A DNA stretch of 64,000 bases, taken from the NCBI GenBank assembly GCA_965645245.1, contig OZ287081.1, forward strand, positions 930,001 through 994,000, in the 5' to 3' direction. Each line of letters starts with the position of its first letter. The first letter of the stretch is position 1. A program made the position numbers and the translations under genes. Below, piece after piece: positions 1 to 43,100 of this stretch. This DNA comes from Massalongia carnosa (taxonomy: Eukaryota). The notes beneath the pieces were generated by a model, which did not search any database, was not told the origin of the DNA, and was given only the letters and a program-made list of their open reading frames with translations.

Positions 1-381
1 AAGAATAATCGTTTGTTGGCCCAGCTCGGTGATCAACATTGGTGTTGAGCTCTCGGTATGATTTCCAATTTTCAGAGATGGATAAATGGCCTGGGTAATA
101 GGCTTGCCTTTTCTTCCATCATATGCCTTTATCTCTTTCCGTCTATTTAACGTCACCGGTGAGATATTAGCCTTTTCACATATTTCCTGCGCAGTTAGTC
201 TATCAACAAAACAATAACCAGTAGATCCAGTATCAATCATCGCTCTCGTATTAAATTTATTTCCTACGATACAATCTTCCATTACTGGATGGTCATCGAA
301 TAAATCATCCTCCATAAAGAAAGATGTGATAACCAACTCATCTACCCCCGCCGCGTCTATGACGGAGGTGCGTCTTTTCCC
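1..381 (-). CDS. pol: E1 pol N-terminus (aspartic protease), reached by -1 frameshift, partial
   Basis: Open -1 frame from GGGAAAA (381-375): ...GVDELVITSFFMEDDLFDDHPVMEDCIVGNKFNTRAMIDTGSTGYCFVD; DTG motif. Confidence 0.85.
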
Positions 382-1652
382 GAATCTTCTGCTTCTGCGC
401 TCATCTCGCTAACCCGTCCCTTTCTAGGCTGAGGGCAGTCTTTGGCCATATGCCCGGTCAGATCGCAGTTAAAACATCTTCCTTCCTTCATTCTTTTCTC
501 CATGATTGGATCGGGATGGGGGGCTCGGGCCATAAAGGGCGTTGAAGATCGGCTGCTGGTGGCGGAAGGCATTGCGGGAGTACGGGTTAATGCGGGGGTG
601 GAGGCCTTTACGATGGAGGTGGTCCCACCGGCCGTGCTTGCGATAGGTATTGAGGGGCCAACAAAGTTCTTTCGATAGCCTTTCGTCTTGGTCTCAACCT
701 CGCGGATGGTCTGATCAGTATGCATGCATAGGCGTGCGAATTCATACAAATCGGTGGCCTTGTAGGCCTCGACGGCTAGCATCTTCTGGAGCTCAAAGTT
801 CATCTTGTTGCGGAGCTCATTCAGTAGGGTCTTTTCGGAATATTCAAGTTCGTTGGCTAAGCGTTGGAATTCTGACCAGAAGGCATGGAATTCTCGATAT
901 TTACCCACTTGTTTAAGGTCGCGGAATTCTCGCAGTGCTGTTTGTTCCTTGTGAGGGTCACCATATACTCGGTTTAAATCATCGAAAATCTCTTCAGCAG
1001 TGGTAAATGGTTTGGTAGACTCCTTTCTAAATCTAGAGGCTATATGCTTGACTGCCTCACCACCAACCCGAGTCCGTACGTATGCCTTTTTCATGGCCTC
1101 GGTAGGGTACCAATCCGCATTGCCTTCTAGCTTATTTCGCATGCTAGATAGCCAGTCCTCGAAGTTGTCGTCTTTATTATTTTCGAGAATGGGTGGGTCA
1201 GGAAGCTTGGAAGATTTGCCAACTCCTTCGGGGGCAGGTGTTGACGCGGTAGTGGTCGTGTGTGTATGCACATTCTCGGCCGATACGGTGCTTGCGGACG
1301 ATATGTTGGTGTTTTGAAGAAATTGGATTATCACCTTAGCTTTATCCAATTCCTCTTGGGCCGAGTCCCGCTCATCGCGAAGGGTCCGGGCTATCTCTAA
1401 CGTTTCATTGAATCTTTCGGCCACCTTGTTCAATAGGTGGGTCTTCGTTCGGGACTCCGTCTTCAACTCAGTTATCATTTCCACCACCCGCTGGGGGTCC
1501 TGGCGGACAAATTCATTCAGTCTATCCACGGAGTCGATGCTATATGGGGAGTCATCATCGATAATATTAGGGACAATGGACTCACGTCGGCCCTCCATGG
1601 GTTCGTCCATAGTGAGCCTACTCCTTCGAGGCTCGCTGATTACTCGGGGCAT
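357..1652 (-). CDS. gag: E1 Gag (431 aa)
   Basis: KLPDPP retrotransposon-gag region; CFNCDLTGHMAKDC zinc knuckle. Confidence 0.92.
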   Translation of the reverse strand: MPRVISEPRRSRLTMDEPMEGRRESIVPNIIDDDSPYSIDSVDRLNEFVRQDPQRVVEMITELKTESRTKTHLLNKVAERFNETLEIARTLRDERDSAQEELDKAKVIIQFLQNTNISSASTVSAENVHTHTTTTASTPAPEGVGKSSKLPDPPILENNKDDNFEDWLSSMRNKLEGNADWYPTEAMKKAYVRTRVGGEAVKHIASRFRKESTKPFTTAEEIFDDLNRVYGDPHKEQTALREFRDLKQVGKYREFHAFWSEFQRLANELEYSEKTLLNELRNKMNFELQKMLAVEAYKATDLYEFARLCMHTDQTIREVETKTKGYRKNFVGPSIPIASTAGGTTSIVKASTPALTRTPAMPSATSSRSSTPFMARAPHPDPIMEKRMKEGRCFNCDLTGHMAKDCPQPRKGRVSEMSAEAEDSGKDAPPS

Positions 1653-1920
1653 TTCTTCTTTCTTTCTTGGGGGTGTTCTTATCTTGTGATCTTCTATTCG
1701 ATGGCCGAGAAATCCTGGTTTCTACGATCCTGGGTTCTGGTTCTTCTGGGTCTGAGTTCTTCTTTTGATTCTGGTAATTCTGGTGGCCTAGAAATCCTTG
1801 CTTCTAAGGTCCTATGATCTGGTTCTAGTCTAAGTTCCGGGTTCTTCTTCTAATTTTCCTGGTTGAACGGTTTAATATCGTGTTCAGGATAGCAAGGGTT
1901 AAAGAAGATGCTTAGTCTAA

Positions 1921-2960: not shown

Positions 2961-3250
2961 TGTTGAAATAGGTATATGACTATGGCTATATGGCTATGAT
3001 AAAAATGGTATGTATGACCGTGATGTTAAGGATGAAGAGTGCTGTTCAGCAGTCTTTGTCCCATAACTGGTCACCCTCTGCTAAGCGAGGTGATAAGATT
3101 ATCTGAGCTGATCTTATCTAATCTCTAGGCTAAGCCTAATACGGCATCTACGGTTTCTGTAGGTGCTCTGTCCATCTTGGGCAGTCGTAGGTGCTATGTT
3201 CATTGAACTGGTAGGTGTTCACTGTACTGGTAGGAGTTGAATATTCAACA
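2961..3250 (-). repeat. copia 3' LTR
   Basis: TGTTGAA...TTCAACA; no differences seen from 8575-8864. Confidence 0.97.
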
Positions 3251-3257
3251 CCCCCCC

Positions 3258-6200: not shown

Positions 6201-6635
6201 CCTCATATCTAGAGTGTCTATGGTTTGTAGCATGAAGTTGCTGTTAACTCTGGGTACATAACATATGATTTTCTTGGTAGGTTCAAGGAACAGTCTCCAG
6301 TTCGAGTTATCATAGAAAATAGAATGCTGATTGAGTAGTCCAAGGCTGACGAGGCTCACAGGGCATTGAGGAATGTAAAGTACATTGTTGAGGGTCAAAA
6401 CTGAACAAGGTGATCCGTCCTCTGATGTCAAAGTTTTTTGAATAGTCCCTCTTCCTGGCGATGTGCCTGTGGACGTTGATCCTGCTAGTCCTGTAGGATA
6501 GTCTATGTAGTCAGTGAAAGAGGGTCTGTGATTGCATACATGCATATCTGCCGCGCTGTCCAATAGCCAAGAACTTCTACTGAGACTTGTCATAGTCATG
6601 ATCTTCTGTAGTCTAACGGTCATGACCTTTGTGAG
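3258..6635 (-). pseudogene. pol: copia pol (PR, IN, RT, RNase H) with one in-frame TAG at 4841-4839
   Basis: WLLDSAA protease, WHARLGH...CHAC zinc finger, ENGVAER integrase, FVDD RT, YSDSDWAG RNase H; ORFs 4839-6623 and 3258-4829 share a frame. Confidence 0.92.
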
Positions 6636-7577: not shown

Positions 7578-7768
7578 CTTGTGAATGAAGAGTAGAAAGC
7601 TTGTGAATGAAGAACTTGATTTTTATATCTTAGAGTTCTATAATACAATGTGTGAGGGATAAAGTAGGAGGATGATGTGTTGACTTCTCCTTATGAGAAA
7701 AACAAGCAGCATTCCTTTTACTTATCATCATGCACCTCATTGTCCTAGCAATATTTGCTCCAAGCCCA

Positions 7769-8019
7769 TATCCTAGTGAAAATTTGTCTAACACTTGGTG
7801 GCTTGATTGTAGTCTGATGAACTTTGATCTATCATCGGCTTGTATCCTAGTGAACTTTTACCTATCACTTGGTGGCTTGATTGTAACCTGATGAACTTTG
7901 ATCTATCATCGGCTTCTATCCTAGTGAAATTTTATCTATCACTTGGTGGCTTGATTGTAACCTGATGAACTTTGACCTATCATCGGCTTGTATCCTAGTG
8001 AACTTTTATCTATCACTTG
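7769..8019. repeat. 74-bp tandem repeat, ~3.4 copies, in copia 5' leader
   Basis: Units start TATCCTAGTGAA at 7769, 7843, 7917, 7991. Confidence 0.9.
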
Positions 8020-8562: not shown

Positions 8563-8574
8563 GGGCTCATAACC
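8563..8574 (-). promoter_or_regulatory. copia primer-binding site, initiator tRNA-Met half-molecule type
   Basis: GGTTATGAGCCC immediately after the 5' LTR; complementary to the tRNAi-Met anticodon arm, as in yeast Ty5 and Drosophila copia. Confidence 0.88.
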
Positions 8575-9700: not shown

Positions 9701-10244
9701 TGTCATGAAACGGCTTCGAACCAAAAGGATCTCGGCCTTATGCCTAGTTGCCCCCTCTATCCTGTCTCTACCTACCGTACCGCAGGTTCATTGGAGCTAC
9801 CGCGGGTTCATTGGACCTAACGCAGGTTTATTGGACCTAACGCAGGTTCATTAGACCTAACGCAGGTTCATTGGAACTACCGCGGATTCATTGGACCTAC
9901 CGCGGGTTCATTGGACCTACCACAGCTTCATTAGTCAGTGCGCGCTGTTCCAACCTTTCTCGATGCGGTTAGATCAAGTACGGCTCCGCCTCCGATCTTC
10001 GAAACCATAATTACCCGGTCCCCATTAGGTGTCTTCGTATTAACTTAGGAAAAGGAGATGAATAGGAGACATCGAAGATCAAGGAAACAAAGGGGTAAGG
10101 AGGTGAGGAACAGATATAAAAGAAGGGGTCGAGTCTCGAAAGTTCTGGCTCCTTGTCCGACGTCTTGAATAGCCAATCTAGCCTAGCTGTAGCTATAGAC
10201 TCAGTCAATTAGAAAGCTTGACCATCCAATCCAGTCCCTTGACA
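9701..10244 (+). repeat. E2 5' LTR
   Basis: TGTCATG...TTGACA; TATAAAA at 10115. Confidence 0.97.
9779..9934. repeat. 20-bp tandem repeat (~7.8 copies) in E2 U3; repeated at 15985-16140
   Basis: Consensus A(C/A)CGC(A/G)GGTTCATTGGACCT, head-to-tail. Confidence 0.95.
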
Positions 10245-10317
10245 TTACGTCGGACCTATCCCTTAAAAAGTGCCTTCCATAGCACTTTTCTCCATCCATT
10301 CCTTTTTCAACCCAGCC

Positions 10318-11496
10318 ATGTCTTCTCTGGAAGAAAACCCCCCTCATCAGGACGAGCGTGTGAGATTTGTTCAGGAACGTCTTCAATCCAACCCTCAACA
10401 GTTCTTGAACGAAATGGAAGCCATGTCGAACGAATTAGCTCAGCTTCGCGCCGCTGCCAAAACCCCATCCCCGTCCGCTTCCGATCCCCCCGTCTCGACT
10501 CTCAACCCAGCTCTCGCCCCATCCTTGGATCCGCAGATAGCTGCCCTGATGAAGCTACTCCTAGCCAGGAACCCCGAACCACGTTCAGAAAAGCTCCCAG
10601 ATATTCCGGAATACGACGGGGACGAAGCTCGACTGGACGCCTGGGAACAAAGCCTCATTCAGCGAATGCATATAAACAATGATCGCTATCCCTCCGACGA
10701 ATCTAAAATCGCGTATGCAGAAAATCGACTAATCATCGGAAAAAAGGCTCACAACCTCATGAACTCCTATCGAGTTGACGGCCTTTGCACACTGACCTCC
10801 TTCTCCGACTGGCGATTCGCTCTTCGTCGTGCCTGTGGCAACCCCTACGAACAAGAAGATGCTCGAAAATATCTCCGAGAAACGTTGAAACAGGGCAGTA
10901 TGAGCTTTGAGGAATACTATAACCTGTTCTCCCAAAAGAAGGATCGTTCGAGAATGGAGGACGCCTCTCTGATTGACGCTATGAAGACAAACGTCAACTA
11001 TTCAACCCAGTCAGCGGCCCTCATGTATCGGGTTCCGGGTACCAATCGACAACCGATTACTTTCGATGAACACGTCACCATGTGGTTGGAGACGGACCGC
11101 GGCCTGCGTCAAATTCGTCACCTCGCCCCTAAATCCTCCAACACTACCGCGGGACTCAATGCTTCGGCCGCCATCACCTCAACGTCCCGAAAGGGACAAT
11201 CAACCAATCAGCCCTCGGCAGTCAGAGCTGCTTCTGTCCCCTCCTCTTCCACCCCCCCAGCACCTCTGCCCGTCGGCGACCCGATGGATCTTAGCTCTGC
11301 TATGGCCGCAGTCAAGGGCCATTCACTAAAAACCGAGGGAGTTAGGAAGATTTGCGAAGACTGGAAACTCTGTTTTTATTGCAAACGCCAGCATCCCGGG
11401 AAGTCAGCCATTGACTGTCCCAATAAAAAATCAACTCACCTTCGAACCATGGATCTCATCCCCGAGGGTCCTGATAACAATCAGGAAAAAGCCTAG
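10318..11496 (+). CDS. gag: E2 Gag
   Basis: First ATG at 10318 (GCCATG); SEKLPDIPEYDGD, DPMDLS motifs; variant knuckle CFYCKRQH...C. Confidence 0.92.
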   Translation: MSSLEENPPHQDERVRFVQERLQSNPQQFLNEMEAMSNELAQLRAAAKTPSPSASDPPVSTLNPALAPSLDPQIAALMKLLLARNPEPRSEKLPDIPEYDGDEARLDAWEQSLIQRMHINNDRYPSDESKIAYAENRLIIGKKAHNLMNSYRVDGLCTLTSFSDWRFALRRACGNPYEQEDARKYLRETLKQGSMSFEEYYNLFSQKKDRSRMEDASLIDAMKTNVNYSTQSAALMYRVPGTNRQPITFDEHVTMWLETDRGLRQIRHLAPKSSNTTAGLNASAAITSTSRKGQSTNQPSAVRAASVPSSSTPPAPLPVGDPMDLSSAMAAVKGHSLKTEGVRKICEDWKLCFYCKRQHPGKSAIDCPNKKSTHLRTMDLIPEGPDNNQEKA

Positions 11497-14400
11497 TCCC
11501 TGCGCTTAGTCGCGTGCAGGGACCTCCCGTTTTCATCTCTTCTTGTTTGATGGCCGACTCATTTTCCCCTTTTCTAAGGTCTAATACTCGTTTTTCCGTA
11601 GCGTCCGCTTTGGAGCTGTTCGAATCAGATAAAACGTTCAAAGACAGCCACATGGTAGTTGCCTGTACTTTACGTTTATCTAGATTCAGAATTAAAACAT
11701 TTAACCTTGTCGATTGTGGTGCATCTGGCTACTCATTTATTGATGAAAACTTTGCGCAAACTCATCAAATCCCTCTTCATCCCCTCAAATATCCTCGACG
11801 CCTTGAAGGATTTGACGGCCAGGCAGCCCTATCCGGAAACATCACCAAGGTGGCCGAAATTATCATGGACCTAGAAGGTCATGTAGAAAGATTATTTCTA
11901 TTTGTCACCGGATTAAAACATTACCCAATTGTCCTGGGTCACCCATGGCTTCGACGGCACAATGCTGTAGCTGATTTTGGAAACAATACCCTCACCTTTG
12001 CCTCTCCTTTCTGCCTCACTCATTGTTGCCCCCATCCTGTCAAAATTCATGCCATCGAGGAAGAATTCCTCACCCCAGTCGAAAGTCAGAAAGTCTGGGA
12101 GGCTGAGGATGTCAACTCAGTCAAGAAAGTTTTCGAAGACATCACGTCCATGCAAATTATCAGTACGTCGAAAACTTTCCTAAAACAAGAGAAAAAAAAA
12201 ACCTCTTCAACTAAACAAATCGAGCCCAAAATCGAAACCCCCCTCGAGCCCCTATCAAATGATGAACCGAGCCGTATCGAGAAGACAATTCAGCAAGGAC
12301 TCACTCCGAAAATTCGATATAGAAGTCCTTCTTCACTTCGTACATCTACTCAAAGACGTGCCGAACAGAAAGCACGCAAAAACATCCCTAGCCTGCAGCT
12401 AAACGTCTGCGAAATCGAAGCCGCCTCCTTCAACCGACTAAGCCGGAAGAAAAATCACGATATCTTTGTTCTTTCGATGAAAGAAATCGATCGCTTCTTA
12501 GGAATAGAAGCCTCACCTAGCCCAGTTCCCAGTCTAGCCCTCAATCAAAGTCCCAGCCTTGTTATCAATTCTAGTCCCAGCCCAAGTTATCAACCATTGT
12601 CCCCCCAGTCGAGTCTCAGTGAAAAGGAAATCCATCTAGCCCTATTCAAAATGAATAAAGCCCTAACCTTACACGCAACCGTTACCCAGGAGGAATTAGA
12701 CGAATATCGGGAAAGAAAAAACGTCGATCCAGCTCCTTTTCTGCCCAAGCAATATCACGACTTCCTAGATGTTTTTTCAAAGAAAAACTCCGACATCCTA
12801 CCCGATCACCGCCCGTACGATCATGCCATCAAGTTAAAAGAAGGCACTCAGGCCCCTAGTCAGGCTCTTTATGGAATGAGTCGCAATGAAATCGAGGAGC
12901 TTCGTCGCTATCTAGATGAGAATTTAGCCAAAGGATTTATTAGAGCTAGTCGCTCTCACGCTGCCTCACCAGTAATGTTCGTCAAAAAGCCTGGAGGAGG
13001 ACTTCGCTTTTGTGTTGACTATCGAGGCCTAAATGCCATCACGATAAAGAATCGCTATCCGCTACCTCTGATCGCCGAGACACTAAATCGATTGTCTAGA
13101 GCCAAGATTTTCACCAAGCTAGACATCATCGCCGCCTTCAACAGGCTTCGAATAAAAGAAGGAGATGAAGAACTCACCGCATTTCGCACTCGTTTTGGCC
13201 TGTTCGAGTCTCTGGTCCTGCCATTCGGTCTGTGCAACGGACCCGCCTCTTTTCAACATTTTATCAATGACACCCTTCGCGAGTATCTTGACGACTTCTG
13301 CACGGCCTATTTAGATGACATTCTCATCTACAGCGATAATGAGCTAGAACACGAGACACACGTCAAGAAAATACTCTCCAGACTTCGAGACGCTGGTCTG
13401 CAGGCCGATATCACCAAGTGCAAATTTCACGTGACCGAAATTGCATACCTGGGGCTGATTGTGACCACAAAGGGAATAAAGATGGACCCAGCCAAAGTGG
13501 AAACCGTCACGAACTGGCCAATTCCCGTCAATGTGAAAGACGTGCAAAGCTTTTTGGGATTTGCTAACTTTTATAGACGATTCGTGTATGGATTTAGCAA
13601 CATAGCCGGCCCCCTAACCAATCTGACCAAAAAGGAAACGGAATTTCGATGGACTGAAAAATGTCAAACCGCTTTCGAAATCTTGAAAAAAGCCTTCACC
13701 TCTGACGTTATATTGAGACATTTCGATCCGGATCGTCCAATAGTCGTAGAAACCGACGCCTCCGACTATGTGTCGGGTGGCATTCTTTCTCAGTATGATG
13801 ATAAGGGAGTGCTTCATCCTGTCGCCTACTTTTCCAGAAAACACAATCCGGCTGAATGCAACTATGAGATATATGACAAAGAATTAATGGCAATTGTTCG
13901 ATGTTTCGAAGAATGGAGATCAGAATTGGAAGGATCTGCATTTCCCATTAACGTCATATCTGATCATAAAAACCTCGAATACTTTGCCTCGACCAAACAA
14001 CTCAGTCGTCGTCAGGCCAGGTGGAGTGAATTTCTTTCTCGTTTTGACTTCAAGATAGTCTACCGACCAGGAAAAGCGGGAGGAAAACCGGACGCTTTGA
14101 CTCGACGATCAGGAGATCTTCCTAAAGAAGGGGATGATACGGACGATCGAAGGAAATATCAGCATCAAACTATTCTAAAAACCGAAAACCTAGACGAGGA
14201 AATCGCAAAAAGCTATCTTTCTTCCATTCTTCTAGCCCCAGCCTTTCTAAATGACGAAGAACCTCACCCCGAAGAACCTCAGCTAGACGAGGGCCCAATC
14301 AATCCAGATGAGGATATTCCCACTCAGCATCTTTGGGAACAAGCCCTCGCACGAGATCAATTCGCACCCAGAATTCTAGAAGCTCTTCGCAATAACGAAA

Positions 14401-15866
14401 GACATCATAATCAAATTCAGCTAGCAGAATGCGAAGACAGAGAAGGTGTCCTATATTTTCGGAATAAGAAATATGTGCCTCGATCAGACCGCCTACGACT
14501 TCGTATCATTCAACTTGCCCACGATAGCGTCGCCGGAGGACATCCAGGCCGTTCCAAATGTCACGAATTGGTAAATCGAACACATTGGTGGCCCAGTATG
14601 CATCAGTCCATCAAAAGATTTATTCGGAATTGCCACACCTGCAAAAGATCAAAACCATCTCGTCAGCGTTATCAAGGCTGGCTGCGTCCGCTACCCCCTC
14701 CAGAACGTAGATGGCGTGATGTCTCCATGGATTATGTTGGACCACTGACTCCCAGCACCTTTATGGGAATCACCTATCGCTATGTCTTAGTGTTTATAGA
14801 CCGTCTTTCCAAAATGCGACACTTTGTCCCCACAGCAACCATGGAAGTTGAAGAAGCGGCCAATTCTTTCTATCAGAATGTCTGGAAATTGCATGGCCTT
14901 CCCGATGTCCTAGTCTCCGACCGCGGCTCTCAGTTTACCTCCGACTTCTGGGAACTGATGTGCAAAAGGTTGAAAATCGATGCCAAACTTTCCACTGGTT
15001 ATCATCCTGAGACTGATGGACAAACCGAAAGAGCTAATGCCACTATGGAGCATTATCTTAGGGCTTATGTCAACTACATGCAAGATGACTGGGCACAATG
15101 GCTTCCCGGCGCCGAATTCGCTAGCAATAACACCGACTCTTCTAGTATTCTAGCCTCCCCCTTCCTAGCCAACTTCGGACAACATCCTCGTGTGGGATTT
15201 GAACCGGAGGAACCGTTACCTCAAGACCTGACCGCTCAGGGAAGGGCAAACCTGATTGCAGCCAATCAGTTTGTGGACAAAATGCAGGACATCGATACTC
15301 ATCTCCGAGACGAAATGCTAATGGCACAAGCATCTTATGAATCAACCGCAAATGCTAATCGACGTCCCTGCCCCCGCTATTTCGTAGGAGATATGGTATG
15401 GCTAAGCACCAGAAACATCCAGACCGCCCGCCCAACAGTTAAATTGGACGATCGAAACATCGGTCCCTATCGGGTCAGCAAGGTTTTTTCCAACCCACTG
15501 ATTGTTCAAATCGAACTTCCCGATACCGTCAAAATTCATCCCGTTTTTCACGTCAATCTATTGCAACACGACGCCAATGACCCGCTTCCCGGACAAATAC
15601 CGGAGCCTCAAAACCCCGTTATTGCTGAAGACGGCCAGCGAGAATGGTATGTAAATAGCATTCTGAATTCCAAACTCGATCGACGTTTCCAACCCCCACT
15701 TCTGAAGTATCTTGTCGGCTGGGAAGGACACGCCTCCACCTGGGAACCATTCAACTACATCACCAACTGTCAGCAAGCCCTAGACGAGTATCATCAAGCT
15801 TACCCCAACGCGGCTGGCCCTCATCTCACCCCGTGCCAAATTCCTCGTTGTCGGTGTCGTGATTAA
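11484..15866 (+). CDS. pol: E2 Pol (PR-RT-RH-IN-chromodomain), via -1 frameshift
   Basis: LVDCGAS, YLDD, ETDASD, HPETDGQTE, GPY, C-terminal EWYVNSIL...YLVGWEG chromodomain; -1 frame open from 11484. Confidence 0.96.
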   Translation, partial: GKSLVPALSRVQGPPVFISSCLMADSFSPFLRSNTRFSVASALELFESDKTFKDSHMVVACTLRLSRFRIKTFNLVDCGASGYSFIDENFAQTHQIPLHPLKYPRRLEGFDGQAALSGNITKVAEIIMDLEGHVERLFLFVTGLKHYPIVLGHPWLRRHNAVADFGNNTLTFASPFCLTHCCPHPVKIHAIEEEFLTPVESQKVWEAEDVNSVKKVFEDITSMQIISTSKTFLKQEKKKTSSTKQIEPKIETPLEPLSNDEPSRIEKTIQQGLTPKIRYRSPSSLRTSTQRRAEQKARKNIPSLQLNVCEIEAASFNRLSRKKNHDIFVLSMKEIDRFLGIEASPSPVPSLALNQSPSLVINSSPSPSYQPLSPQSSLSEKEIHLALFKMNKALTLHATVTQEELDEYRERKNVDPAPFLPKQYHDFLDVFSKKNSDILPDHRPYDHAIKLKEGTQAPSQALYGMSRNEIEELRRYLDENLAKGFIRASRSHAASPVMFVKKPGGGLRFCVDYRGLNAITIKNRYPLPLIAETLNRLSRAKIFTKLDIIAAFNRLRIKEGDEELTAFRTRFGLFESLVLPFGLCNGPASFQHFINDTLREYLDDFCTAYLDDILIYSDNELEHETHVKKILSRLRDAGLQADITKCKFHVTEIAYLGLIVTTKGIKMDPAKVETVTNWPIPVNVKDVQSFLGFANFYRRFVYGFSNIAGPLTNLTKKETEFRWTEKCQTAFEILKKAFTSDVILRHFDPDRPIVVETDASDYVSGGILSQYDDKGVLHPVAYFSRKHNPAECNYEIYDKELMAIVRCFEEWRSELEGSAFPINVISDHKNLEYFASTKQLSRRQARWSEFLSRFDFKIVYRPGKAGGKPDALTRRSGDLPKEGDDTDDRRKYQHQTILKTENLDEEIAKSYLSSILLAPAFLNDEEPHPEEPQLDEGPINPDEDIPTQHLWEQALARDQFAPRILEALRNNERHHNQIQLAECEDREGVLYFRNKKYVPRSDRLRLRIIQLAHDSVAGGHPGRSKCHELVNRTHWWPSMHQSIKRFIRNCHTCKRSKPSRQRYQGWLRPLPPPERRWRDVSMDYVGPLTPSTFMGITYRYVLVFIDRLSKMRHFVPTATMEVEEAANSFYQNVWKLHGLPDVLVSDRGSQFTSDFWELMCKRLKIDAKLSTGYHPETDGQTERANATMEHYLRAYVNYMQDDWAQWLPGAEFASNNTDSSSILASPFLANFGQHPRVGFEPEEPLPQDLTAQGRANLIAANQFVDKMQDIDTHLRDEMLMAQASYESTANANRRPCPRYFVGDMVWLSTRNIQTARPTVKLDDRNIGPYRVSKVFSNPLIVQIELPDTVKIHPVFHVNLLQHDANDPLPGQIPEPQNPVIAEDGQREWYVNSILNSKLDRRFQPPLLKYLVGWEGHASTWEPFNYITNCQQALDEYHQAYPNAAGPHLTPCQIPRCRCRD

Positions 15867-15906
15867 AATTGCATCGCAGGAGCTCTGCCTTTGAGAGGGG
15901 AGCTAC

Positions 15907-16450
15907 TGTCATGAAACGGCTTCGAACCAAAAGGATCTCGGCCTTATGCCTAGTTGCCCCCTCTATCCTGTCTCTACCTACCGTACCGCAGGTTCATTGG
16001 AGCTACCGCGGGTTCATTGGACCTAACGCAGGTTTATTGGACCTAACGCAGGTTCATTAGACCTAACGCAGGTTCATTGGAACTACCGCGGATTCATTGG
16101 ACCTACCGCGGGTTCATTGGACCTACCACAGCTTCATTAGTCAGTGCGCGCTGTTCCAACCTTTCTCGATGCGGTTAGATCAAGTACGGCTCCGCCTCCG
16201 ATCTTCGAAACCATAATTACCCGGTCCCCATTAGGTGTCTTCGTATTAACTTAGGAAAAGGAGATGAATAGGAGACATCGAAGATCAAGGAAACAAAGGG
16301 GTAAGGAGGTGAGGAACAGATATAAAAGAAGGGGTCGAGTCTCGAAAGTTCTGGCTCCTTGTCCGACGTCTTGAATAGCCAATCTAGCCTAGCTGTAGCT
16401 ATAGACTCAGTCAATTAGAAAGCTTGACCATCCAATCCAGTCCCTTGACA
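15907..16450 (+). repeat. E2 3' LTR
   Basis: No differences seen from 9701-10244. Confidence 0.97.
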
Positions 16451-16666: not shown

Positions 16667-16922
16667 ATGAATTGTAATAATACTGTCACGCGTCTGAATT
16701 ATGCTGTCAGGGTCCTGAGGTCACCTGACATCAGACTAGCATCGATTAGGTAATGTGCCGAGGAACCGACTTTTCAGGGGTTATATAGAACTCCGCCCGA
16801 GTAAAGCTTTTAGACTTCGTCTGAAGATTTTGGTGTAGAACTAGGCTATTGAAATTGAACTCGTTTTAACCCTCACACAATCTTCAGACCTACAATCAGA
16901 ATCATTAGGCTAATCAGAAAAC

Positions 16923-18515
16923 ATGAACTCATTAGAATCATCCAGCAGAGATGTCGCTCCCTCGGGGCCGGCCTTCAACACTAGAGCTCGCTCCATGTCG
17001 CGACAATCGACACAGAGCATACCAGGCGAATATGAACCCGCCGACGAAGAGGTGGGAAATGACACTGTTTTGCCGACAAACAAAGACAAAGGCAGGGAAC
17101 CGAAGATCGAGGCCCCGACCTCAGAACCGAAAATCGACATAAGCAATTATGCCATTTATCGAAGTCTGACGGAAAGCAATCCGTCGAAATCAGCTATGAT
17201 CATCAAGGTGGCCAATCGAGAAGAGTTGAGAAGGGCCCTCGTCCTAAAGGGAGACGGCGACATATGGTACACTGTTCTAGCCGGCACGCTCCTACAACAT
17301 GAGGTCTTGATCGAGAAATATCAGGACTTGAAAAAAAGAAACAAAGATCTAAAAGGTCTACAGGCAGAATGGACCCGAATGATAAAGAGCTGGGATCACG
17401 AGAGACTAGTATTTGAGGAGGATATCGCGGCTGAAAAATTGGAGACTCAGAAGGTCAAAGCGGAAAACTCGGACCTCATTCGTGAAATATCAGAGATGAA
17501 ACGTCTAGCTCGCGAAGCTACTCAGACGTCGACCTCATCGACTGGTCAAACTGAAGATCAATCCGCCGTCGCTGCCCCCTTAAGCAATTATCGACCCAAA
17601 GGCACCAACCCGAAGGAGGCCCTCGACGGTTCCAACTCAGACGCCTATAGTGCATGGGCGTTTACGGTGGAAAGAAAAATCAGAACCGACTCCCCAATGT
17701 ACACTAGTGAGGAGTTGAAAATCGACTACGCCTTATCGCAGATGAAGGATCCCATTTTCGACGCCATACACACCTGGGTAGTGGATGCCGGTCCCACTCT
17801 CTCTTTGAATACGTTCTTCAAGGAAATTGAGAGCTATCTCGGGATAGCATATTTGACAAAGGACGCGAAGAAGGAATTGAAAGAAATAAGCATGAACAAA
17901 GATGAAACGGTGACTGAATACTATCATCGAATGTTCAAACTCTGGCAACGTGCAAAAACCCCCGCGGATGAGAGAATTGAGACGTTCAAGGACACCCTGC
18001 GGCCGAACATCGCGCTGTCTCTATTGGGACGGGACTTCATCAGTCTAGAAACCCTCTTGCATGAAGCCAGGAAAATCGAATAGGGAAGAAAGGAGATGAA
18101 TCAGAAGTACGCGAAGTCGGAATCTCAGAAGCCCGCGAAAACGACGACTTCTCCTTCTTCTTCCGTCGGTCGTGGTTTAAACAAAACTACGACCGCCACC
18201 TCCAGTACCTCGATCACAGTCAAACCAAAAGCGACTACGACCAACTCCGCCATCTCCGCCAACCCGAACTCGAAATTCGGACAGGTCTCGACCAAACCGG
18301 AAGGATGGGTAGGAGCTTGGTACGAGGGGACGCTTCACCCGCCCAAGTTGGAGGACGGGGAACGAGAGACTCTGTCACGACAGGGCCGATGTTGGTCGTG
18401 CAGAGGATCAGGGCATAGGGGCCGAGACCCCTGTTGCATTAGGCAAGCAGTGAATCTCAGTAGAGTCGCCATTCGAGAAGACTCATCCGAGTCCGAGGAC
18501 TCGGAAAAAGAATGA
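16923..18515 (+). pseudogene. gag: E3 gag with one in-frame TAG (18081-18083)
   Basis: ORFs 16923-18083 and 18096-18515 share a frame; knuckle CWSCRGSGH lies after the stop. Confidence 0.88.
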
Positions 18516-21500
18516 TTCCTGATGATAGTCGCCATCAGGAATGTCGAGAAGTTTCATTAAGGGTTGTTAGAGCATCTGTTCTTTCTGTCGATCATCTCGT
18601 TCCGGGCAAGCATCTTTTATTTAGATGTAGTATAGCCTCTAATGAAAATCAGTTGATGATCGATAACGGAAGTGAAGCTCAATTTCTTCATGAATCCTTT
18701 GCGCGCAAAAGAAAACTAGAGACCATTAGACTAAAAAAAAGAGACAGGGTCAGACTGGAACTTGGGGATGGAAAAGTCCATCAAATCATTGATAAGGCCG
18801 TTATCGTTCCCGTCAGAATCGGAGATCATGAGGAAAAGTTATTCTGCTATCTGGCCGACATAGGTAATCATACCTTGATCATCGGTGATGGATGGCTGCA
18901 GGAGCATAACCCTCACATTGATTGGGTTGAACGCACCATGACGTTCTCCAATCGGTGCGTCAGTAAGGGATGCGCACCTCGATCTCATTCAGTCTCAAAA
19001 TTTGAATCCACAATCTTGGAGAAGGAAACGACTGCCTCAGCAAAGAACGAGGCCTTTGAAAATTTCGATATTCAGTCCCTCACCCCGAAGCGATTTATGA
19101 AACTTCTTCGAAGATCGGGTCATCAGACTTACTGTTTCTATCCGAGGGAAAAGCTCAACAAGAAGTTAGATAGGTACGAGAAGAAGCTTCTGACTGCTTC
19201 AAGTATCAACGCAGTCACCAGCGACGATCATGAGAAGTTCATGAAAGACAAAGTCGAATATACTCTGGAAGAATTGAAAAAACGAGTACCCGAGGCCTAT
19301 CATGGCGAGATTGAAGTCTTCATGAGGGCTAAGGCAGACGAGTTGGCACCTCATCGAAAAGAGGATCACGAAATCAATTTGATGCCCGGGATCGAGCCCC
19401 CGTTCATCAAGAATTATCGGCCCATGTCCGAACAGGAATTGACCGCGGTAAGAAAATATCTAGATGAGCACTTAGCAAAAGGGTTTATTCGTCCGAGCTC
19501 GTCAAAGGCGGCCGCGCCGGTACTATTGGTCAGGAAACCAGGCGGGGGTCTTCGCTTTTGCGTAGATTATCGAGATCTGAATAATATCACGGAGAAAAGT
19601 CGATACCCCATTCCATTGATCAGCGAGACATTGGCGAAACTCGCCAAAGCAAAGTGGTTTACTAAATTGGACGTCATTCATGCATTCAATAGGATGAGGA
19701 TTAAAGAGGGACAAGAGTGGCTCACGGCGTTCAATACGCGATACGGTCAATTTGAATATCTTGTGATGCCCTTCGGACTATGCAACGCTCCATCAACATT
19801 TCAGAGCTATATCAATAACTCCCTGCGAGAATACTTAGATTATTTCGTCACCGCCTATCTGGACGACGTACTGGTGTTCAGTGAAACAGAAACGGAGCAC
19901 ATCGAGCAGGTACTGAAGGTACTTCGTCGTCTGAAAGAAAGAGGACTTCAACTGGACATAGACAAGTGTGAATTCTCTGTCTCCGAAGTCAAGTACCTCG
20001 GAATGTTCGTGGGGGTGAATGGCGTTAGAATGGACCCAGAAAAGGTGACGGCCATACTAGAATGGAAGACGCCCGCGTCAGTAAAAGAGGTGCAGTCCTT
20101 TCTTGGATTCGCTAACTTCTATCGTCGCTTCATTGAGCGATTCTCCGAAAAGGTGAAGTGTCTGACCGAGCTAACCCGCGGAGAGCAATATGGCACGAAA
20201 GGCGGAAAGAGACGCACCAAGTATCAAGACTTCGTGTGGACCACTGAATGTCAGCAAGCTTTCGAAGACATGAAGATTTCTTTTACCTCTGCGCCGATTC
20301 TTGCTCATTACGACCCAAGGCTAGAGACCTGGGTGGAGACAGACGCATCTGACTTCGTAGTATCGGGGATACTCTCTCAGATGCATGAAGGCGTTCTGAA
20401 ACCCGTGGCTTATTTCTCGAAGAAGATGAGCCCCGCCGAATGCAATTATGAGATCTACGATAAAGAACTCCTAGCCATCGTAGAAAGTTTCGTCATCTGG
20501 AGACCGGAGCTAGCGGGAGTGGAGCAATCAACAAAGGTCTACTCAGATCATAAGAATCTGGAGACCTTCATGACTTTGAAACAACTAAATCGCCGTCAAG
20601 TGCGTTGGGCTGAGATGCTGGCGGAATATAATTTTCGCATTATGTATAGACCAGGCAAGCAAGGGGGCAAACCGGACGCCCTCACCAGAAGAGAGCAAGA
20701 TCTGCCGATGGACGCGGAGGATGATCGCACCAGATATCAATATCAGGTGCTGCTAAAAGAAAATCAGCTGGACGATGAAGTGAAGCAGGACCTGAAGCTG
20801 TACGTGACAACCAGATCCATGGCCAATCGAGAACGGGTTGAAGACAACATTACTACTGACTCATCCGATCAAATCAGGGATGAGGAAGTAGAGGACTTGA
20901 CGGTAGAGGAGTTCACAATCAATTCGAATGATGATTCGGATGCAGAAAAGCCTGATGAATTATTAGAAAATCTTTTAGCGGAGGCATATCAAGAAGACGC
21001 AATGATTCAGGAAGTCATGAAGGCTAAGTTGGAAAATCTGAAGAAATTGCCCGATAAAATTCTAAGCAACGGGCTGAGACTGGCGACGGGTGACTTGGAA
21101 GTCCGTCACGAAAGACTATACTACAAAACACGCCTCTTCATTCCGAATTTCGACAAGCTGAAGCTGCGTCTTTTATCGGATCATCATAATCCCCCGATGC
21201 AAGGACACCCCGGGTATCGAGGCATGTATGCCAAAATGCTGGAGAACTATTTCTGGATGTCCATGAAGGATGATTGTCGAAGATACGCTACTAACTGCTC
21301 TACATGCCGAAGGTCCAAGGCGTACAACGATCAGAAACAGGGACTATTAGCCCCACTACCCATACCTCAAAGAAAATGGACAGACTTATCTCTGGACTTT
21401 GTAGTCAAACTGCCCAAATGTCACAGACGGGGCCGGACGTACGAAAATATCTTGGTTATCGTGGACAGATTGACCAAACGTAGGTTGTACGAACCTATGG

Positions 21501-22582: not shown

Positions 22583-23536
22583 TGTCAGGGTCCTGAGGTC
22601 ACCTGACATCAGACTAGCATCGATTAGGTAATGTGCCGAGGAACCGACTTTTCAGGGGTTATATAGAACTCCGCCCGAGTAAGCTTTTAGACTTCGTCTG
22701 AAGATTTTGGTGTAGAACTAGGCTATTGAAATTGAACTCGTTTTAACCCTCACATATGCTAAGCAGTTTCTAATAGAAAATCTACTTGAAAGCAAGATAT
22801 GCGCTGCTCGCATATTTGACATTCCTCGTACCACTTTACAAAGTTCACTTGCTCAAAACAGCGCGTCGAATGAAGTCGAGAAGAGAGGAGGACATAATAA
22901 GATATTGGAGAAGCATCAGATCAAAGCAATACATGAGTTCATTCGCTCGTTACTTACATATGGTGTTCAACCGACGCATGAACTGATATTCAACGCGATC
23001 AAGAGTCTGAAGCGAAGTCAGAATGCTGATTATAAAGGTCCTACTAAGCGATGGTTTAGAACATGGTGGAAATCCAACCATTTGCATAAGATTAAGACTA
23101 AACCGCTAGCAGTCGTTCGCTATACGGCGGGACAAGTGAAGGACGTTGAAGCATGGTTCGCTGATTATCGGGTTGTTCTTCGAGAGCTGAATATCAAGAA
23201 TAAACGTAATATCATCAATTTTGATGAGGCTGCTTTTCGAGTTGGCTACATGAAGGGACATGAAATTTTGGTTCCAACAGATGTAAAGGAGCATTATTCT
23301 AGGGTACGGATAGAAGCACACCCCTTTGGTTACCCACACACCCCCCTCGGTTACCCACACACACCCAGTGGTTACCCACACACCCAACCCTAAAGTAGCT
23401 TAAGTTTGAAAAGTTTCTTCGGCCACTTTCCCTTATCGGGTGACCATCTTTCCTAACTAGGGAATTTTGATCCTGCATCTTCATTCTGCGTTTTCCCTGC
23501 ATTGATACCCCGCATTACTGACGCCACGTCGTCATC

Positions 23537-38167: not shown

Positions 38168-39020
38168 ATGATGATGATGATGTATTCATACTCCGATATG
38201 ACACCGGCCGTAGGCCGGCCCATGCGGGCAAAGCTATCTAAGTTATGTTACATGGAAAACCTTTCACAGGTGTAAAAACCATATCCCATGATACCCGTCC
38301 GATGTGACTACGGGTCGACGTCGAGCGGGAGACGCAGTGCAAAAGACGTGTGGGAACTGTAATGCCTTGTGAAAAGAGAAGAAAGAAAGAAAGTTTCAAC
38401 TACTGTTGATTGTACAATAATGTTAATGCTAGTGAGAACTGATTCAATAAGCCTGTTTTCATTAGCCAAGCAGTTAGTATCTTCAGAGTTTTTGATGATT
38501 CGGTCAGCTGCTGATAGTCGCTCGTGCCGGCGGCGCGAAACATCTGTTCTCTATTGTCAGTAAGTCTGCAGAACATGATTACATGTTCTGGAGTTTGTCT
38601 GTGCCAGCCACATGAGCAGGCCGGTGAGGTGACGGAGGGCACCCGTCGCTTGTAGAGGAAGTCAGCTAACCCAATCTTGCCAGTGCGGATTTGTGTTGTT
38701 AGAGCGCTTTCTGCCTTTTTTAGCTGCTTGTGTATATTCAGTCGTTTTTTGCTCAGTGTCACGGTACTGCCTCGCTAGCACCCGAATCGAGTCACGGCGC
38801 TAAGGCTTGAATGATAAGCGAGGGCTAGGCTCAGCATTGTTAGCGCGATCAACGGAAAGATTATATCTTTGCTTGAGATTTTCTTTCTTCCTTGTCGAAC
38901 GTCTTGTAAATATCCGATAGCCTACCTATAGCAAAGACTTCGTACCACCTGATCTTATCTCATTGAGTCCGTCTCGTCACACTACGTTCGACCTACCCTA
39001 TCAGCTGGTACGCCTTTGCC

Positions 39021-40199
39021 ATGGCCGAAGCATCGCCCCCGTCCCCATACATCGTTCCAACTCCTCCCGTTTCCGTGGGTTCTGCGGAAAATTTGTTGTC
39101 CGCAGTTCAATCTAATCCCATAACCTGGTATGAGTATATGCAGCGCCTGGATCTATTCGCCCACGATGCCAGCACGCATCTGGATACCAATGATCGCGAT
39201 TTAGCAGAGGCGAATCACGCGATCCTAGATTTGAACAACAGACTGGCTGGCAGTAACGCGATAGCTGCCGAGCTTCGCGAACAAATACGATCCGCCCCCA
39301 CCCCAGTCGCACATTCATCTCCGCGTTCAGAGAAACATCCTGATCCGCCTCTATACGGCGGAGACAGAGCCGAATTACGCACATGGACTACTCAGCTGCG
39401 TCTGAAACTCTTGATGAACGCAGATCGATACCCCACCGTGCCAGGAAAATTAGCGTACGCGATAAGTCGTCTCAAGGATACGGCCTTGTATCAGATACGT
39501 CCTTATATCAAAGATGACGACACTATCGATCTGCGCGATGTTAGCGAGCTGATTACCAAGCTGGAGCTGGCCTTCGGTGATCCGGACAGAAAGGGCACCG
39601 CACAGCGAGAACTTCGTCGCCTCCAGTAAGCAAACCGAGAATTCCATGTATATCTGGCCGAGTATCAGCGGTTGATCCCCGATACTGGATACAACGAAGA
39701 GGCGAAACGATCGATCCTGCTAGAAGGCATTAGTAATGAGCTAAAAAGCGCCATCCTGACGCTTGATCTTCCGACCGACCTAGACGAGGTCATTCAGATT
39801 CTCCAGAAGATCGACAACCGCTACCGCGCCACCCAGGCCTCCATCCGCAAAGCTGGGACTGTCTTTAGCAACACATCACGATCTAGCTCTGCACCCACTA
39901 TCGCCGCTGTCAGCAAACCCACACCCGCTCCCGCTCCCACCGTCACCACCACCACCAAAATCTCCGCACCCCCCTCCTCTGACGCCATGGATCTATCAGT
40001 ATCTCGTCATCGAGGCCCTCTTACCCCCGCCGAGAAATCACGAAGAATGAACGAAGGATTGTGCATGTATTGCGGGGGATCTGGACATTTTGCGCAATCC
40101 TGCCCGCTATCCTCGTCCAAAACACGCCCGCGATTCCAAGTCTCTGAAATGGAACAGAAGACTGTTGATTTGGGGGGAAAAGTACAGTCTCCGAACTAA
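39021..40199 (+). pseudogene. gag: E4 gag with in-frame TAA (39627-39629)
   Basis: SEKHPDPPLYGG, DAMDLS, CMYCGGSGHFAQSC. Confidence 0.9.
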
Positions 40200-43100
40200 G
40201 TCGCGTTCGGAGACCAACACGGAACAAGTGTATTTCAATATCAGCATTTTCCTTGTCCACCAAAGCTTTGCCAGAAGAAGAATTAGATGGCAACAATTTG
40301 GTGATATCAATGGTTGTATCCATAGGTAATCGTCAAATAAAGACCTATGCACTAGTTGACTGTGGAGCATCTGGTTTTGCTTTTATTGACTCTTCGTTCG
40401 CGCGCCGTCATTCCCTGCCCCTATCCCCCTTGAAGCAATCTCGTATCCTCGAATTAGCCGATGGACAACCCATCTCCTCTGGTGAAATCACTCACCTAGC
40501 CAAGTTACGTCTTCAAACCGCCACGCATTCCGAGCCCGCCAACCTTCTCGTCACCAATTTGGGCCACTACCCCATCGTTCTAGGGATCAAGTGGCTACAG
40601 ATACACGACACCAGCATACGATGGGCTGGAAACACTCTCTCGTTCACGTCACCATACTGTCTTCAGCACTGCCTCGAGAATCATGAACCCAACACTGTCG
40701 TCGGAATAAGCAACGTTCCAGAACTTCGTGCAGAGAAGGAGCACCCCGCCGCAGTCACGAAAGTCACTAGTCCGGAACAACGAACATCCGCTTCAGACCA
40801 GCCCGGCCGGTCTGAAGGAAAGGGCGCTAAATTGAAGAGGTCTAGCGCTCCCTCCTTCGACCAATCAGACCCAGACCCAAGACCCAAGACCCAAGACCCC
40901 GCCCGAGACCGAGAAACCTGAGACCGAGAAACCTGAGACCGAGAAACCTGAGACCGAGAAACCTGAGACCGAGAAACCTGAGACCGAGAAACCCGAGATC
41001 AAGAAACCCCTGAATATCTGCATGATAGGAGCCGCCCCTTTTGTCCGTCTTGCGCGGAAAAAGGACTGCGAACTATTTACCGTGAACCTTAGAGACATTG
41101 AACGAGCCCTGACCCCGAAACCGGAAGTTGATCCCGCTACAATATTGCCGCCGGAGTATCACGAATTTCTTGATGTATTTTCCAAGAATGAAGCTGATAA
41201 ACTGCCCGAACGCCGTAGCTATGACCACACTATTCTGCTGATGGAAGGGAAAGAACCCACGTATGGACCCTTGTATGGCATGAGCCGAGATGAATTGCTG
41301 GTACTGCAGAAGTATCTTACCGAGAATTTGGAGAAAGGATTATTCGTTCAAGTTCTTCCCCCGCCGCGTCCCCAGTACTGTTTGTCAGAAAGCCGGGCGG
41401 AGGCCTGCGCTTTTGCGTTGATTATAGAGCATTGAACGCTATGACTATCAAAAACAGATATCCCCTGCCCCTGATCAGAGAAACTCTAGACCGCCTGAGT
41501 AAAGCATGCATTTTTACTAAGCTAGATATAGTCGCCGCATTCAATCGCCTTCGTATGGCCTATGGAGAGGAGTGGAAAACCGCCTTTCGGACAAGATACG
41601 GTTTGTTTGAATATCTCGTTATGCCCTTCGGTCTCGCCAATGCACCCAGTTCGTTTCAGCATTATATCAATGATGTTTTACGAGAATATCTCGATATATT
41701 CTGTACCGCTTATATCGACGATATATTAATCTACAGTAGTTCCATGAAAGAACATAAGGGTCATGTCACCAAAGTTTTGAAGGCTCTGCAAAAAGCGGGG
41801 TTACAACTGGATATTTCGAAATGCGAATTCCATGTAACGGAGACAATATATCTTGGATTTATTATTTCGGATAAAGGCATAAAAATGGACCCTAAGAAAA
41901 TAGAGACCATAAAGAACTGGAATACCCCGGAGAACCTCAAGGATGTGCAGGCGTTTATAGGATTTGCGAATTTCTACAGACGGTTTGTGAAATCCTTTTC
42001 GAAGATCGCTGCCCCCCTCACCGCTATGTCCAAAAAGATTACGCCATTCGTGTGGACCGAAGAGTGTGCAAAGGCCTTTAAAATCTTAAAGGATGTGTTC
42101 TCCAGTGACACCATACTAATTCATTTCGACCCTGATAAGGAAAGCATAGTGGAAACAGATTCTTCCGACTATGTAAGCGCAGGAGTACTATCGCAGTATG
42201 AGGTAGAGGGTGTACTTAAACCAGTAGCCTTCTTTTCCAAAAGACTATCGCCAGCGGAGTGTAATTATGAAATCTATGATAAAGAACTTCTGGCCATTAT
42301 CAGAGCTTTTGAAGAATGGAGACCCGAATTGCAAGGAGCAGCACATCCAGTAAAGGTAATAACAGACCATAAGAATCTCGAGTATTTCACTACCACTAAG
42401 CAACTCAGCAGGCGCCAGGCAAGATGGGCCGAATTTTTATCACGATTCGACTTTAAGATAGGTTACAGACCAGGGAAACAAGGAGAAAAACCAGATTCTT
42501 TGACTAGAAGATCAGGAGATCTTCCTAAAGAGGGGGACCTGAGACTGGAACATCAGAATCAGGTGGTACTAAAACCCCATAATTTCGAACTTCTGGCTAA
42601 TAATCTGCCTCGCCTGACCGATATTACCAACGATGACGCTGATACGGATAATGATCTAGAAACCGAACATGAAGACTCCGAGAAATCTATCGAGGAATTG
42701 ATGAATCAAGGATACGAGCTGGACCCATTCCCCAATAGCATTTTGACTCTTCTTCGAAACGGTGCTAGCCATAGCAAGGATATAACTCTGGCCGAATGCG
42801 AAGACCGAGATGGGAGACTATATTACCGCGAACGCCTATACGTACCCGATTTCCATGATTTGAGACTCAGACTATGCAAGGAACACCACGATAGCCCTGT
42901 CGCCGGTCATCCCGGTAGAGCCAAAACTTTCGGTTTACTATCTCGAACTTATTATTGGCCCCAGTACCATCATTTCGTAGCACGATACGTACAGAACTGT
43001 CACGTATGTTCTCGTAGCAAAGCTTCCCGTCATCCAAAGTACGGTATGTTAAGACCTCTGCCCATTCCTCAGCAACGCTGGAGAGATATTTCCATGGACT

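Follow-up and report, generated by a model that had tools for sequence, protein, structure and literature searches.

The closest described counterparts of the signals examined here are the stem-loop stimulators of -1 ribosomal frameshifting in human immunodeficiency virus type 1 (HIV-1, gag/pol), human T-cell leukaemia virus type 2 (HTLV-2, gag/pro), astrovirus (1a/1b) and cocksfoot mottle virus. In the portions of PMC3203594 and PMC7618472 that describe them, these stimulators combine a slippery heptamer, a short spacer, a hairpin of 7-12 bp with a G+C-rich base and a gag/pol-type overlap, and they do so without a pseudoknot. The same arrangement is found at the gag-pol junctions of four Ty3/gypsy retrotransposons, E1 to E4, in a stretch of 64,000 nucleotides from Massalongia carnosa (assembly GCA_965645245.1, contig OZ287081.1, positions 930,001 to 994,000 of the forward strand; hereafter the window, from whose first letter all positions are counted). 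The viral loops are 3-4 nt long (10 nt in astrovirus), and those portions report no loop sequence conserved across divergent relatives, whereas the cassette described here has an 8-nt loop that keeps seven letters across reverse transcriptase (RT) proteins 52-78% identical. Hairpin-type -1 stimulators are themselves known; what appears to be new is such a signal with a lineage-wide, sequence-conserved apical loop.

Three other kinds of system bear comparison. In the cardiovirus 2A plus stem-loop signal and the arterivirus nsp1beta/PCBP plus C-rich motif signal, as outlined in a section of PMC7618472, a short conserved 3' sequence is read by a protein that sets the frameshifting rate. These signals may serve as a model for a possible role of the loop, with which its conservation is compatible. 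They differ in lying farther from the slip site (about 13 nt in cardioviruses) and in needing a known viral protein, whereas here the spacer is 5 nt and the hairpin alone should stimulate. The hairpin at the gag/pol boundary of plant Sireviruses is likewise a conserved motif found in long terminal repeat (LTR) retrotransposons, with a covariant stem and a short loop; according to the relevant part of PMC5009743, however, it belongs to another superfamily (Ty1/copia), has pol in the +1 frame and consists of an 11-bp stem with a 4-nt loop, whereas the present signal is of Ty3/gypsy and classical -1 type. Finally, the H-type pseudoknots of PEG10 (itself derived from Ty3/gypsy), simian retrovirus 1 (SRV-1) and coronaviruses have the same position and role 3' of a slippery heptamer, but the elements studied here show no conserved pairing of the loop with downstream sequence. 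With regard to earlier descriptions, Rfam 15 gave no match at gathering score in the whole window, and around the E2 cassette two matches at chance level (E 1.5 and 2.9). The first-pass annotation of the window, made from its letters, had named no description of the loop, and full-text searches of the literature found none; the survey of LTR-retrotransposon recoding signals by Gao et al. (2003, RNA 9:1422) is represented there by the summary in PMC5009743, whose relevant part mentions no fungal gypsy loops, and the survey itself may depict fungal hairpins.

All four cassettes were recovered where the first-pass annotation had placed them, letter for letter, each as a heptamer, a 5-nt spacer and a hairpin with an 8-nt loop of the form WWAGWCGC. 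The E1 cassette lies on the minus strand (344..381) and reads GGGAAAA-GACGC-ACCTCCGTC[ATAGACGC]GGCGGGGGT, with the heptamer at 381-375 (G_GGA_AAA), the spacer at 374-370, the 5' arm at 369-361, the loop ATAGACGC at 360-353 and the 3' arm at 352-344; its stem has 9 bp, including two G.U pairs, and it matched the covariance model described below with 36.4 bits (E 6e-06, the E-values of this model being rough). The other three are on the plus strand. In E2 (11484..11523; 48.6 bits) the heptamer occupies 11484-11490 (G_GAA_AAA), the spacer 11491-11495, the 5' arm 11496-11505, the loop TTAGTCGC 11506-11513 and the 3' arm 11514-11523, giving a stem of 10 bp with one G.U pair. The corresponding parts in E3 (18503..18542; 51.2 bits) are at 18503-18509 (G_GAA_AAA), 18510-18514, 18515-18524, 18525-18532 (loop ATAGTCGC) and 18533-18542, and in E4 (40175..40214; 54.8 bits, the top match) at 40175-40181 (G_GGA_AAA), 40182-40186, 40187-40196, 40197-40204 (loop TAAGTCGC) and 40205-40214; both stems consist of 10 perfect pairs. 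Minimum-free-energy folds of the 50 nt 3' of each heptamer gave the same four hairpins, at -14.2 to -19.8 kcal/mol.

The heptamer stands in the gag frame in all four elements, and G_GAA_AAA is near-canonical, with P-site re-pairing by way of one G.U. As had been read from the letters, pol is in the -1 frame throughout, as judged by the ends of the open reading frames (ORFs) and, in E1, by the stop-free translation of positions 1-381 of the minus strand; pol overlaps gag in E1 to E4 and in 30 of the 82 further loci introduced below, namely those with an intact junction. The gag stop indeed falls within the loop in only two elements, E1 (TAG) and E4 (TAA, loop positions 1-3); in E2 (TAG) and E3 (TGA, 18513-18515) the spacer contains it. 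The window shows no excess of the 8-mer as such, with 12 matches where 12.45 are expected; what is not random is its position, in the loop of four out of four junction hairpins. A second loop-like 8-mer (AAAGACGC) occurs in E1 at 370-377 on the minus strand, where it covers the last letters of the heptamer together with spacer sequence and is read K-R-R in pol; it may be due to chance.

A wider sample of 82 loci was chosen by RT protein similarity, without use of the motif, the query being an RT alignment of E2 to E5 (E5 is a degenerate gypsy element of the window, see below). The sample comprises three loci on viral contigs and 79 on metagenome contigs (the best 80 of 597 confirmed relatives), the latter with RTs 50-79% identical to that of E2, and some of the loci are mutated copies. 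Junctions were read by walking the pol frame upstream from the RT and seeking the gag frame one base ahead. Among the 30 loci with an intact gag(-1)pol junction, the cassette was present in all 11 that belong to the RT branch of E2 to E4 and in none of the 19 outside it. The loop was within one mismatch of AAGTCGC in ten of these 11 (L001, L005, L007, L008, L009, L013, L028, L031, L049 and L069), and the eleventh, L002, has intact ORFs and a hairpin with an 8-nt loop, AACGCCGG, that carries three mismatches. At the 19 other junctions, too, there is a slippery site with structure of some kind, but stems and loops are different.

Fourteen seed cassettes served to build a covariance model, which was then run against the window and the 82 loci (579,664 bases together) and returned 34 matches at E up to 1, of which 28 were kept as cassettes. 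The six rejected were the reverse strand of the E2 hairpin, a weak match in L078 (L078:3092) and long-loop hairpins of another lineage in L035, L039, L053 and L067. One further mutated copy, in L075 (loop TAAGTTAC), was identified by blastn similarity to its sister copies, bringing the total to 29 cassettes. In two cases (L012:5698 and L075:5597) a second cassette lies several kb downstream of the RT through which the locus was recruited, so that on these contigs elements of the branch lie next to, or inside, one another.

RT trees of 86 rows were computed with FastTree and with IQ-TREE (quick search); they represent a single domain and are unrooted, a midpoint root being used for drawing only. 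Both trees contain one and the same set of 29 rows with a support of 96 each, made up of 26 cassette-bearing rows and three (L010, L012 and L016) whose RT lies too near the contig start for the junction to be visible. Thus, all 26 members of the branch with a visible junction carry the cassette, 25 of them with a loop no more than two mismatches from AAGUCGC at positions 2-8, and the motif was found in none of the 23 junctions read outside the 29-row set. One change of state suffices for this distribution, and the cassette marks one side of a branch of Ty3/gypsy elements of the chromovirus type in the sample. The first-pass annotation had spoken of four divergent elements. Their divergence stands, but their independence does not: E2, E3 and E4 are members of one branch and share the cassette by descent, while E1, the RT of which lies beyond the window, is absent from the assignment. 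For the branch of E2 to E4, the conservation first seen in the window accordingly extends to the wider, protein-selected set.

The stems, said at first sight to differ in sequence and yet to pair fully, show compensatory change in all 10 pairs, both among the 14 seeds and again among the 29 cassettes. In the seeds, 95.0% of cells are paired and all 10 pairs include changes on both sides; none of 500 shuffles reached the observed value in four of five measures, and one of 500 did so for the number of further pair types. In the 29 rows, 91.0% of cells are paired and the covariation score is 0.792, as compared with 0.294 after shuffling and 0.13-0.20 when the partners were slid along each other. 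Seventeen cells hold a G.U pair, which is compatible only with the sense strand of the RNA. Conservation is partial in the lower seven pairs (G-Y-C-Y-C-Y-G), and the top three vary freely, with three to six pair types each. The geometry is fixed, with a spacer of 5 nt, a stem of 9-10 bp and a loop of 8 nt, or of 10 nt in the 14 of 29 cassettes in which the top pair is open. Predicted hairpin energies range from -3.5 to -22.4 kcal/mol in the whole set and from -9.9 to -22.4 kcal/mol in intact elements. There are 13 types of heptamer, among them G_GGA_AAA, G_GAA_AAA, G_GAA_AAC, U_UUA_AAA and G_UUA_AAC, and AAA at positions 4-6 is invariant (29/29).

The loop behaves differently from its surroundings. 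Across the 29 cassettes, the commonest base at loop positions 2-8 has a frequency of 0.90 (1.47 bits). The corresponding value is 0.62-0.65 for the arms, 0.61 for the spacer and 0.43 for the 5-nt tail after the stem, and it is 0.3-0.6 over the 24 nt that precede the heptamer. Several of the 29 are near-copies, and the figures do not change when the set is thinned to 23 rows. Thirteen loops match AAGTCGC exactly, 11 with one mismatch, four with two and one with three. The consensus first proposed, WWAGWCGC, needs revision: N-A-A-G-U-C-G-C describes the branch better, position 1 being free and the T at position 2 of E1 to E3 a minority state. As a baseline, we took the four-fold degenerate sites of invariant residues in 19 intact branch RTs (18 columns; protein identity 52-78%), where the commonest base averages 0.41 (maximum 0.58) and pairwise identity is 0.28. 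The silent sites are saturated and the loop is not, indicating that the loop is conserved beyond what shared descent accounts for. As judged by these comparisons, loop positions 2-8 are under purifying selection at the nucleotide level, independently of the phase in which they are read.

In stop-ridden copies (L052:2810, L075:768, L075:5597 and L065:2813) the CpG of the loop shows C-to-T and G-to-A changes (TCGC to TTAC, TTGC or TCAC), as expected from repeat-induced point mutation or decay of methylated CpG. Other lineages within the superfamily have junction hairpins of their own (L033:538 and L050:3167; L045:3182 and L063:1732; L057:3092, L060:810 and L070:3092), with loop or inner sequences conserved between relatives, such as TAGGAGCCA in L033 and L050 and CCAG.GACAGGGTC.CGCTGGTG in L045 and L063. 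Conserved loops may be general in these elements.

The explanation that we favour, and regard as probable, is that the cassette is an inherited -1 frameshift stimulator for Gag-Pol in one fungal Ty3/gypsy branch, the apical loop of which is selected as RNA. The anatomy expected of such a signal is present: an overlapping pol in the -1 frame, an in-frame slippery heptamer and a covarying structure that starts 5 nt after it. A ribosome translating gag would meet the heptamer while the hairpin, with its G+C-rich base 5 nt further on, would sit at the mRNA entrance and resist unwinding, and some ribosomes would shift back by one base into the pol frame. Most likely, the loop would be contacted in a sequence-specific way by a trans factor, which could be the ribosome or the Gag/nucleocapsid of the element; alternatively, the loop could adopt a defined fold. 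Either arrangement would tune the rate of slipping or couple it to another step of the element cycle. Hairpins of 9-12 bp with a G+C-rich base are sufficient -1 stimulators, as set out in a part of PMC3203594; as such a basic stimulator needs no particular loop, a fixed loop points to an added requirement. Both a loop-dependent mode of action and a protein reader have parallels, the former in a contested model by which stem-loops act through the A site in a manner dependent on stem length and loop, the latter in known trans-acting protein stimulators of frameshifting (both treated in a section of PMC7618472).

Several points weigh against this explanation. The frameshift role is deduced from the anatomy of the sequence. 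In the model system described in part of PMC3203594, loop composition changed frameshifting only modestly, and its authors see no base-specific contacts between hairpin and ribosome; strict loop conservation is thus unneeded for a basic stimulator and may serve another function. The sample consists of the relatives most like E2 and is enriched for its branch, and 14 of the 29 cassettes were found by a model that contains the loop, so that the loop frequencies lean towards the motif. L002, with its three mismatches in an otherwise intact element, demonstrates that the motif is not indispensable. L001 (L001:1248), with open gag and pol, has the heptamer A_UCA_AAA, for which P-site re-pairing is poor, as it is for U_CUA_AAA or A_CUA_AAA in a degenerate family (L047:2876, L077:1213 and L078:2822). 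In L001 and the related mutated family the heptamer is canonical in its A-site half (A_AAA) alone, a hint of slippage by a single transfer RNA (tRNA) in this sub-lineage.

A more specific version of the favoured explanation, which we put forward tentatively as possible though doubtful, is that the loop AAGUCGC is a sequence-specific docking site whose reader is either the Gag/nucleocapsid of the element itself or the ribosome that translates it, for instance with the loop docked against ribosomal RNA. The letters AAGUCG are presumably the same as those in the 3' strand of helix 44 of the small-subunit ribosomal RNA, around A1492/A1493, which may be a coincidence. That stems change freely while seven loop letters stay nearly fixed in any phase suggests that the loop is read by something, and the existence of separate loops in each related lineage (L033/L050, L045/L063 and L057/L060/L070) leans, as only a hint, towards co-evolution with a reader encoded by the element. 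Hairpin stimulators are usually seen as mechanical barriers in which the loop hardly matters. If docking did occur, the hairpin would be a read-out device instead of a passive roadblock, the element could use it to adjust its Gag:Gag-Pol ratio, also by feedback, or to pass its RNA from translation to packaging, and LTR retrotransposons would have their first described example of a frameshift loop read in trans. With a length of about 45 nt and numerous natural variants, the cassette offers a compact system in which to ask whether a simple frameshift hairpin can carry a sequence-specific contact and whether LTR retrotransposons regulate Gag:Gag-Pol through such a hairpin. The covariance model is in addition a practical marker for the gag/pol junction of one fungal Ty3/gypsy lineage.

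Among the alternatives, the one that survives best, although we consider it unlikely, holds that the hairpin is the stimulator and that the loop is kept for a second job: as a nucleocapsid-binding or packaging site, as a switch between translation and packaging, or for host RNA processing or editing. It would agree with the small importance of loop identity in model hairpin frameshifting, as reported in the portion of PMC3203594 cited above. A CCHC zinc knuckle is encoded just upstream in all gag proteins of the branch, as judged by their alignment (a Pfam zf-CCHC match was obtained for E1 only), and loops that are specific to lineages fit co-evolution with a protein of the element better than a universal host machine. 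The distance of the loop from the slippery site is fixed, however, and there is a single site per element: further copies of AGTCGC number 10 against about 23 expected, with no sign of a multi-site packaging pattern in the elements. Fungal A-to-I editing, with a UAG within the hairpin loop as its target, was also considered; the branch consensus, A-A-G and not U-A-G, tells against it.

It is improbable that the loop is kept for its coding of Ser-Arg, as the first residues of the trans-frame Gag-Pol (for example, in a protease cleavage site), and not as RNA. The phase itself would allow it, as pol reads the loop xxA-GT/CGC in 27 of the 29 cassettes, and among 15 intact elements in this main phase Ser is encoded at A3-G4-N5 in 12 and Arg at C6-G7-C8 in 13. 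Some of the variants are in line with it: L049 (CGT) and L004 (CGA) carry synonymous changes only, so that of three position-8 changes seen in intact elements two keep Arg, and L002 retains Arg-Arg by way of CGC CGG. A constraint at the protein level may therefore add to that on the RNA. On the other side, the very same codons recur, AGT for Ser in 12 of the 15 elements and CGC for Arg in 10, whereas the invariant Arg columns of the RTs use four to six codons and the silent sites have drifted as described above; invariant Ser columns in these RTs favour AGC or TCN. Moreover, two elements with a 9-nt 5' arm keep the letters in another phase, E1 reading them as I-D-A and L031 as K-V-A instead of x-S-R, and L031 does so with AAAGTCGC retained exactly. 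A gag stop in the spacer leaves no second frame over the loop that could add constraint. The first-pass annotation had argued from E1, whose 5' arm is one base shorter, that coding does not explain the loop; the different phase of E1 was confirmed, and together with L031 and the saturated silent sites of the same elements it bears the argument out. Coding cannot be the main cause of loop conservation.

We give equally little credence to a loop that pairs elsewhere in the RNA of the element, as a pseudoknot, a kissing loop or with a distant partner. Long-distance pairing of the luteovirus type provides a precedent. GCGAGC in E5 (at about 49575, 61 nt past the heptamer) complements the element's own loop sequence GCTCGC, so that a pseudoknot is possible there; complements of 6 nt recur some 620 to 810 nt upstream and near +2270 in some elements, and one of them, GTGACT in L069, matches the variant loop of that element. 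A search for perfect 6-mer complements to the core of the loop gave, however, a single occurrence in E3 and none in E1, E2 or E4, and over 18 elements such complements are at about chance level. The search covered perfect 6-mers in the element parts at hand, as opposed to pairings of 5 nt or less or with G.U, and at this level the absence of a common partner, noted early on for the sequence near the hairpins of E1 to E4, holds in cis for the 18 elements as well. With regard to an H-type pseudoknot, no 6-nt complement is shared, and within 400 nt a 5-mer complement was found only in E2 (+71). The recurrent places were rejected as partners: the upstream cluster coincides with gag codons of S-R-L and D-Y columns, in which the residues are conserved and the nucleotides free, and the matches near +2270 lie at non-homologous distances, with the S-D-Y codons of RNase H varying. 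Pairing within the loop (positions 1-8 and 2-7) was also considered, and the loop variants show no Watson-Crick covariation at these positions. An AGNN-type tetraloop closed by non-canonical pairs is another fold that the loop could adopt.

Gag-Pol could in principle also arise if a polymerase, be it RNA polymerase or reverse transcriptase, slipped on the run of A, which we judge very improbable. The AAA is invariant, and structure-stimulated slippage of reverse transcriptase has been proposed for some retrotransposons, in the part of PMC5737552 devoted to it, but the run here comprises only 3-6 A, heptamers like G_UUA_AAC fit tandem tRNA slippage, and the stimulating stem-loop in that account lies 5' of its motif, whereas here it lies 3' at a ribosomal-type spacing of 5 nt. 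Least credible of all is kinship alone, without selection, for although every carrier belongs to one RT branch, the RT proteins of this branch have diverged to 52-78% identity with saturated silent sites, the stem arms, the spacer, the tail and the flank on the upstream side have drifted apart within the same 45 nt, and the top three stem pairs have changed repeatedly, so that all of these baselines contradict it.

With regard to the elements themselves, Pfam recognised the Ty3/gypsy domains gag, protease, RT, RNase H, integrase and chromodomain among those of the window. E1 is represented by its gag ORF (357..1721, minus strand; Retrotrans_gag and zf-CCHC) and by the beginning of pol, which runs in the -1 frame from 381 to the window edge at 1. 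E2 is a complete element (9701..16450, plus strand) with gag at 10267-11496, pol at 11478-15866, identical LTRs of 544 bp and a 5-bp target duplication; RVP_2, RVT_1, RT_RNaseH, Integrase_H2C2, rve and SH3_Tf2-1 follow one another in the domain order of Ty3/gypsy (Metaviridae) elements of the chromovirus type. E3 (16705..22682, plus strand) has pol at 18464-22582 and LTRs that do not differ over their first 100 nt; its gag frame is broken by one TAG (18081-18083), and the copy may be non-autonomous or recently inactivated. E4 (38757..44421, plus strand) has LTRs 96-98% identical and a chromodomain, and both gag and pol are broken, the latter into several ORFs. The Chromo score was 37.2 bits in E4 and 20.9 bits in E2, below the cut-off of 25.1, and E3 gave no chromodomain match. 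E1 to E4 are 41-61% identical in pol, 23-38% in the protease region and 49-68% in the RT.

E5 has a cassette-like site of related architecture with an altered loop (49514..49557, plus strand), in which G_GGA_AAA at 49514-49520 is followed by a 6-nt spacer and the hairpin CCTCCACGG[AAAGCTCGCCAG]CCGaTGGAGG. Its loop is longer and different, and its RT lies in another lineage, which places it outside the motif group. The element extends roughly over 48294-52215, contains many in-frame stops and has a second in-frame GGGAAAA at 49556-49562.

Immediately after the 5' LTR of E2 (10245-10262; TTACGTCGGACC...) the usual TGG that starts a primer-binding site for a tRNA 3' end is absent, and no tRNA genes, as candidates for pairing of the loop with a primer tRNA, were found in the window. 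At least half of the words sampled from E2 were present in five public runs from three studies, and a fraction of 0.34 in a sixth run from a fourth study. One public run with E2 words is labelled 'lichen metagenome', and no RNA run is listed among those that match E2. When contigs of four runs were compared with positions 10300-13000, no difference was seen inside 11484-11523 among the rows listed (there being 227 further rows), and a single contig provided the only insertion or deletion nearby, an insertion just after 11523.

Besides further repeats, the window contains ordinary eukaryotic genes; for one of these the nearest Atlas cluster is commonest in Ascomycota, which points weakly to a fungal, probably ascomycete, host. 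A microsatellite, (TTATCA) x 26, at 16509-16665 separates the E2 3' LTR from the E3 5' LTR. A Ty1/copia element on the minus strand (2961-8866) has identical LTR segments of at least 292 nt and a gag-pol split by in-frame stops at 4836-4838 and 6633-6635, and it harbours a 74-nt tandem repeat in three copies (7769-8019). Transposase remnants were found at 24037-25161 (Mutator-like element, MULE) and 25925-26611 (DDE_1). A non-LTR element similar to long interspersed nuclear elements (LINE-like), with endonuclease and RT, is present in two tandem copies at 54817-63976, about 4.34 kb apart and 73-94% alike.

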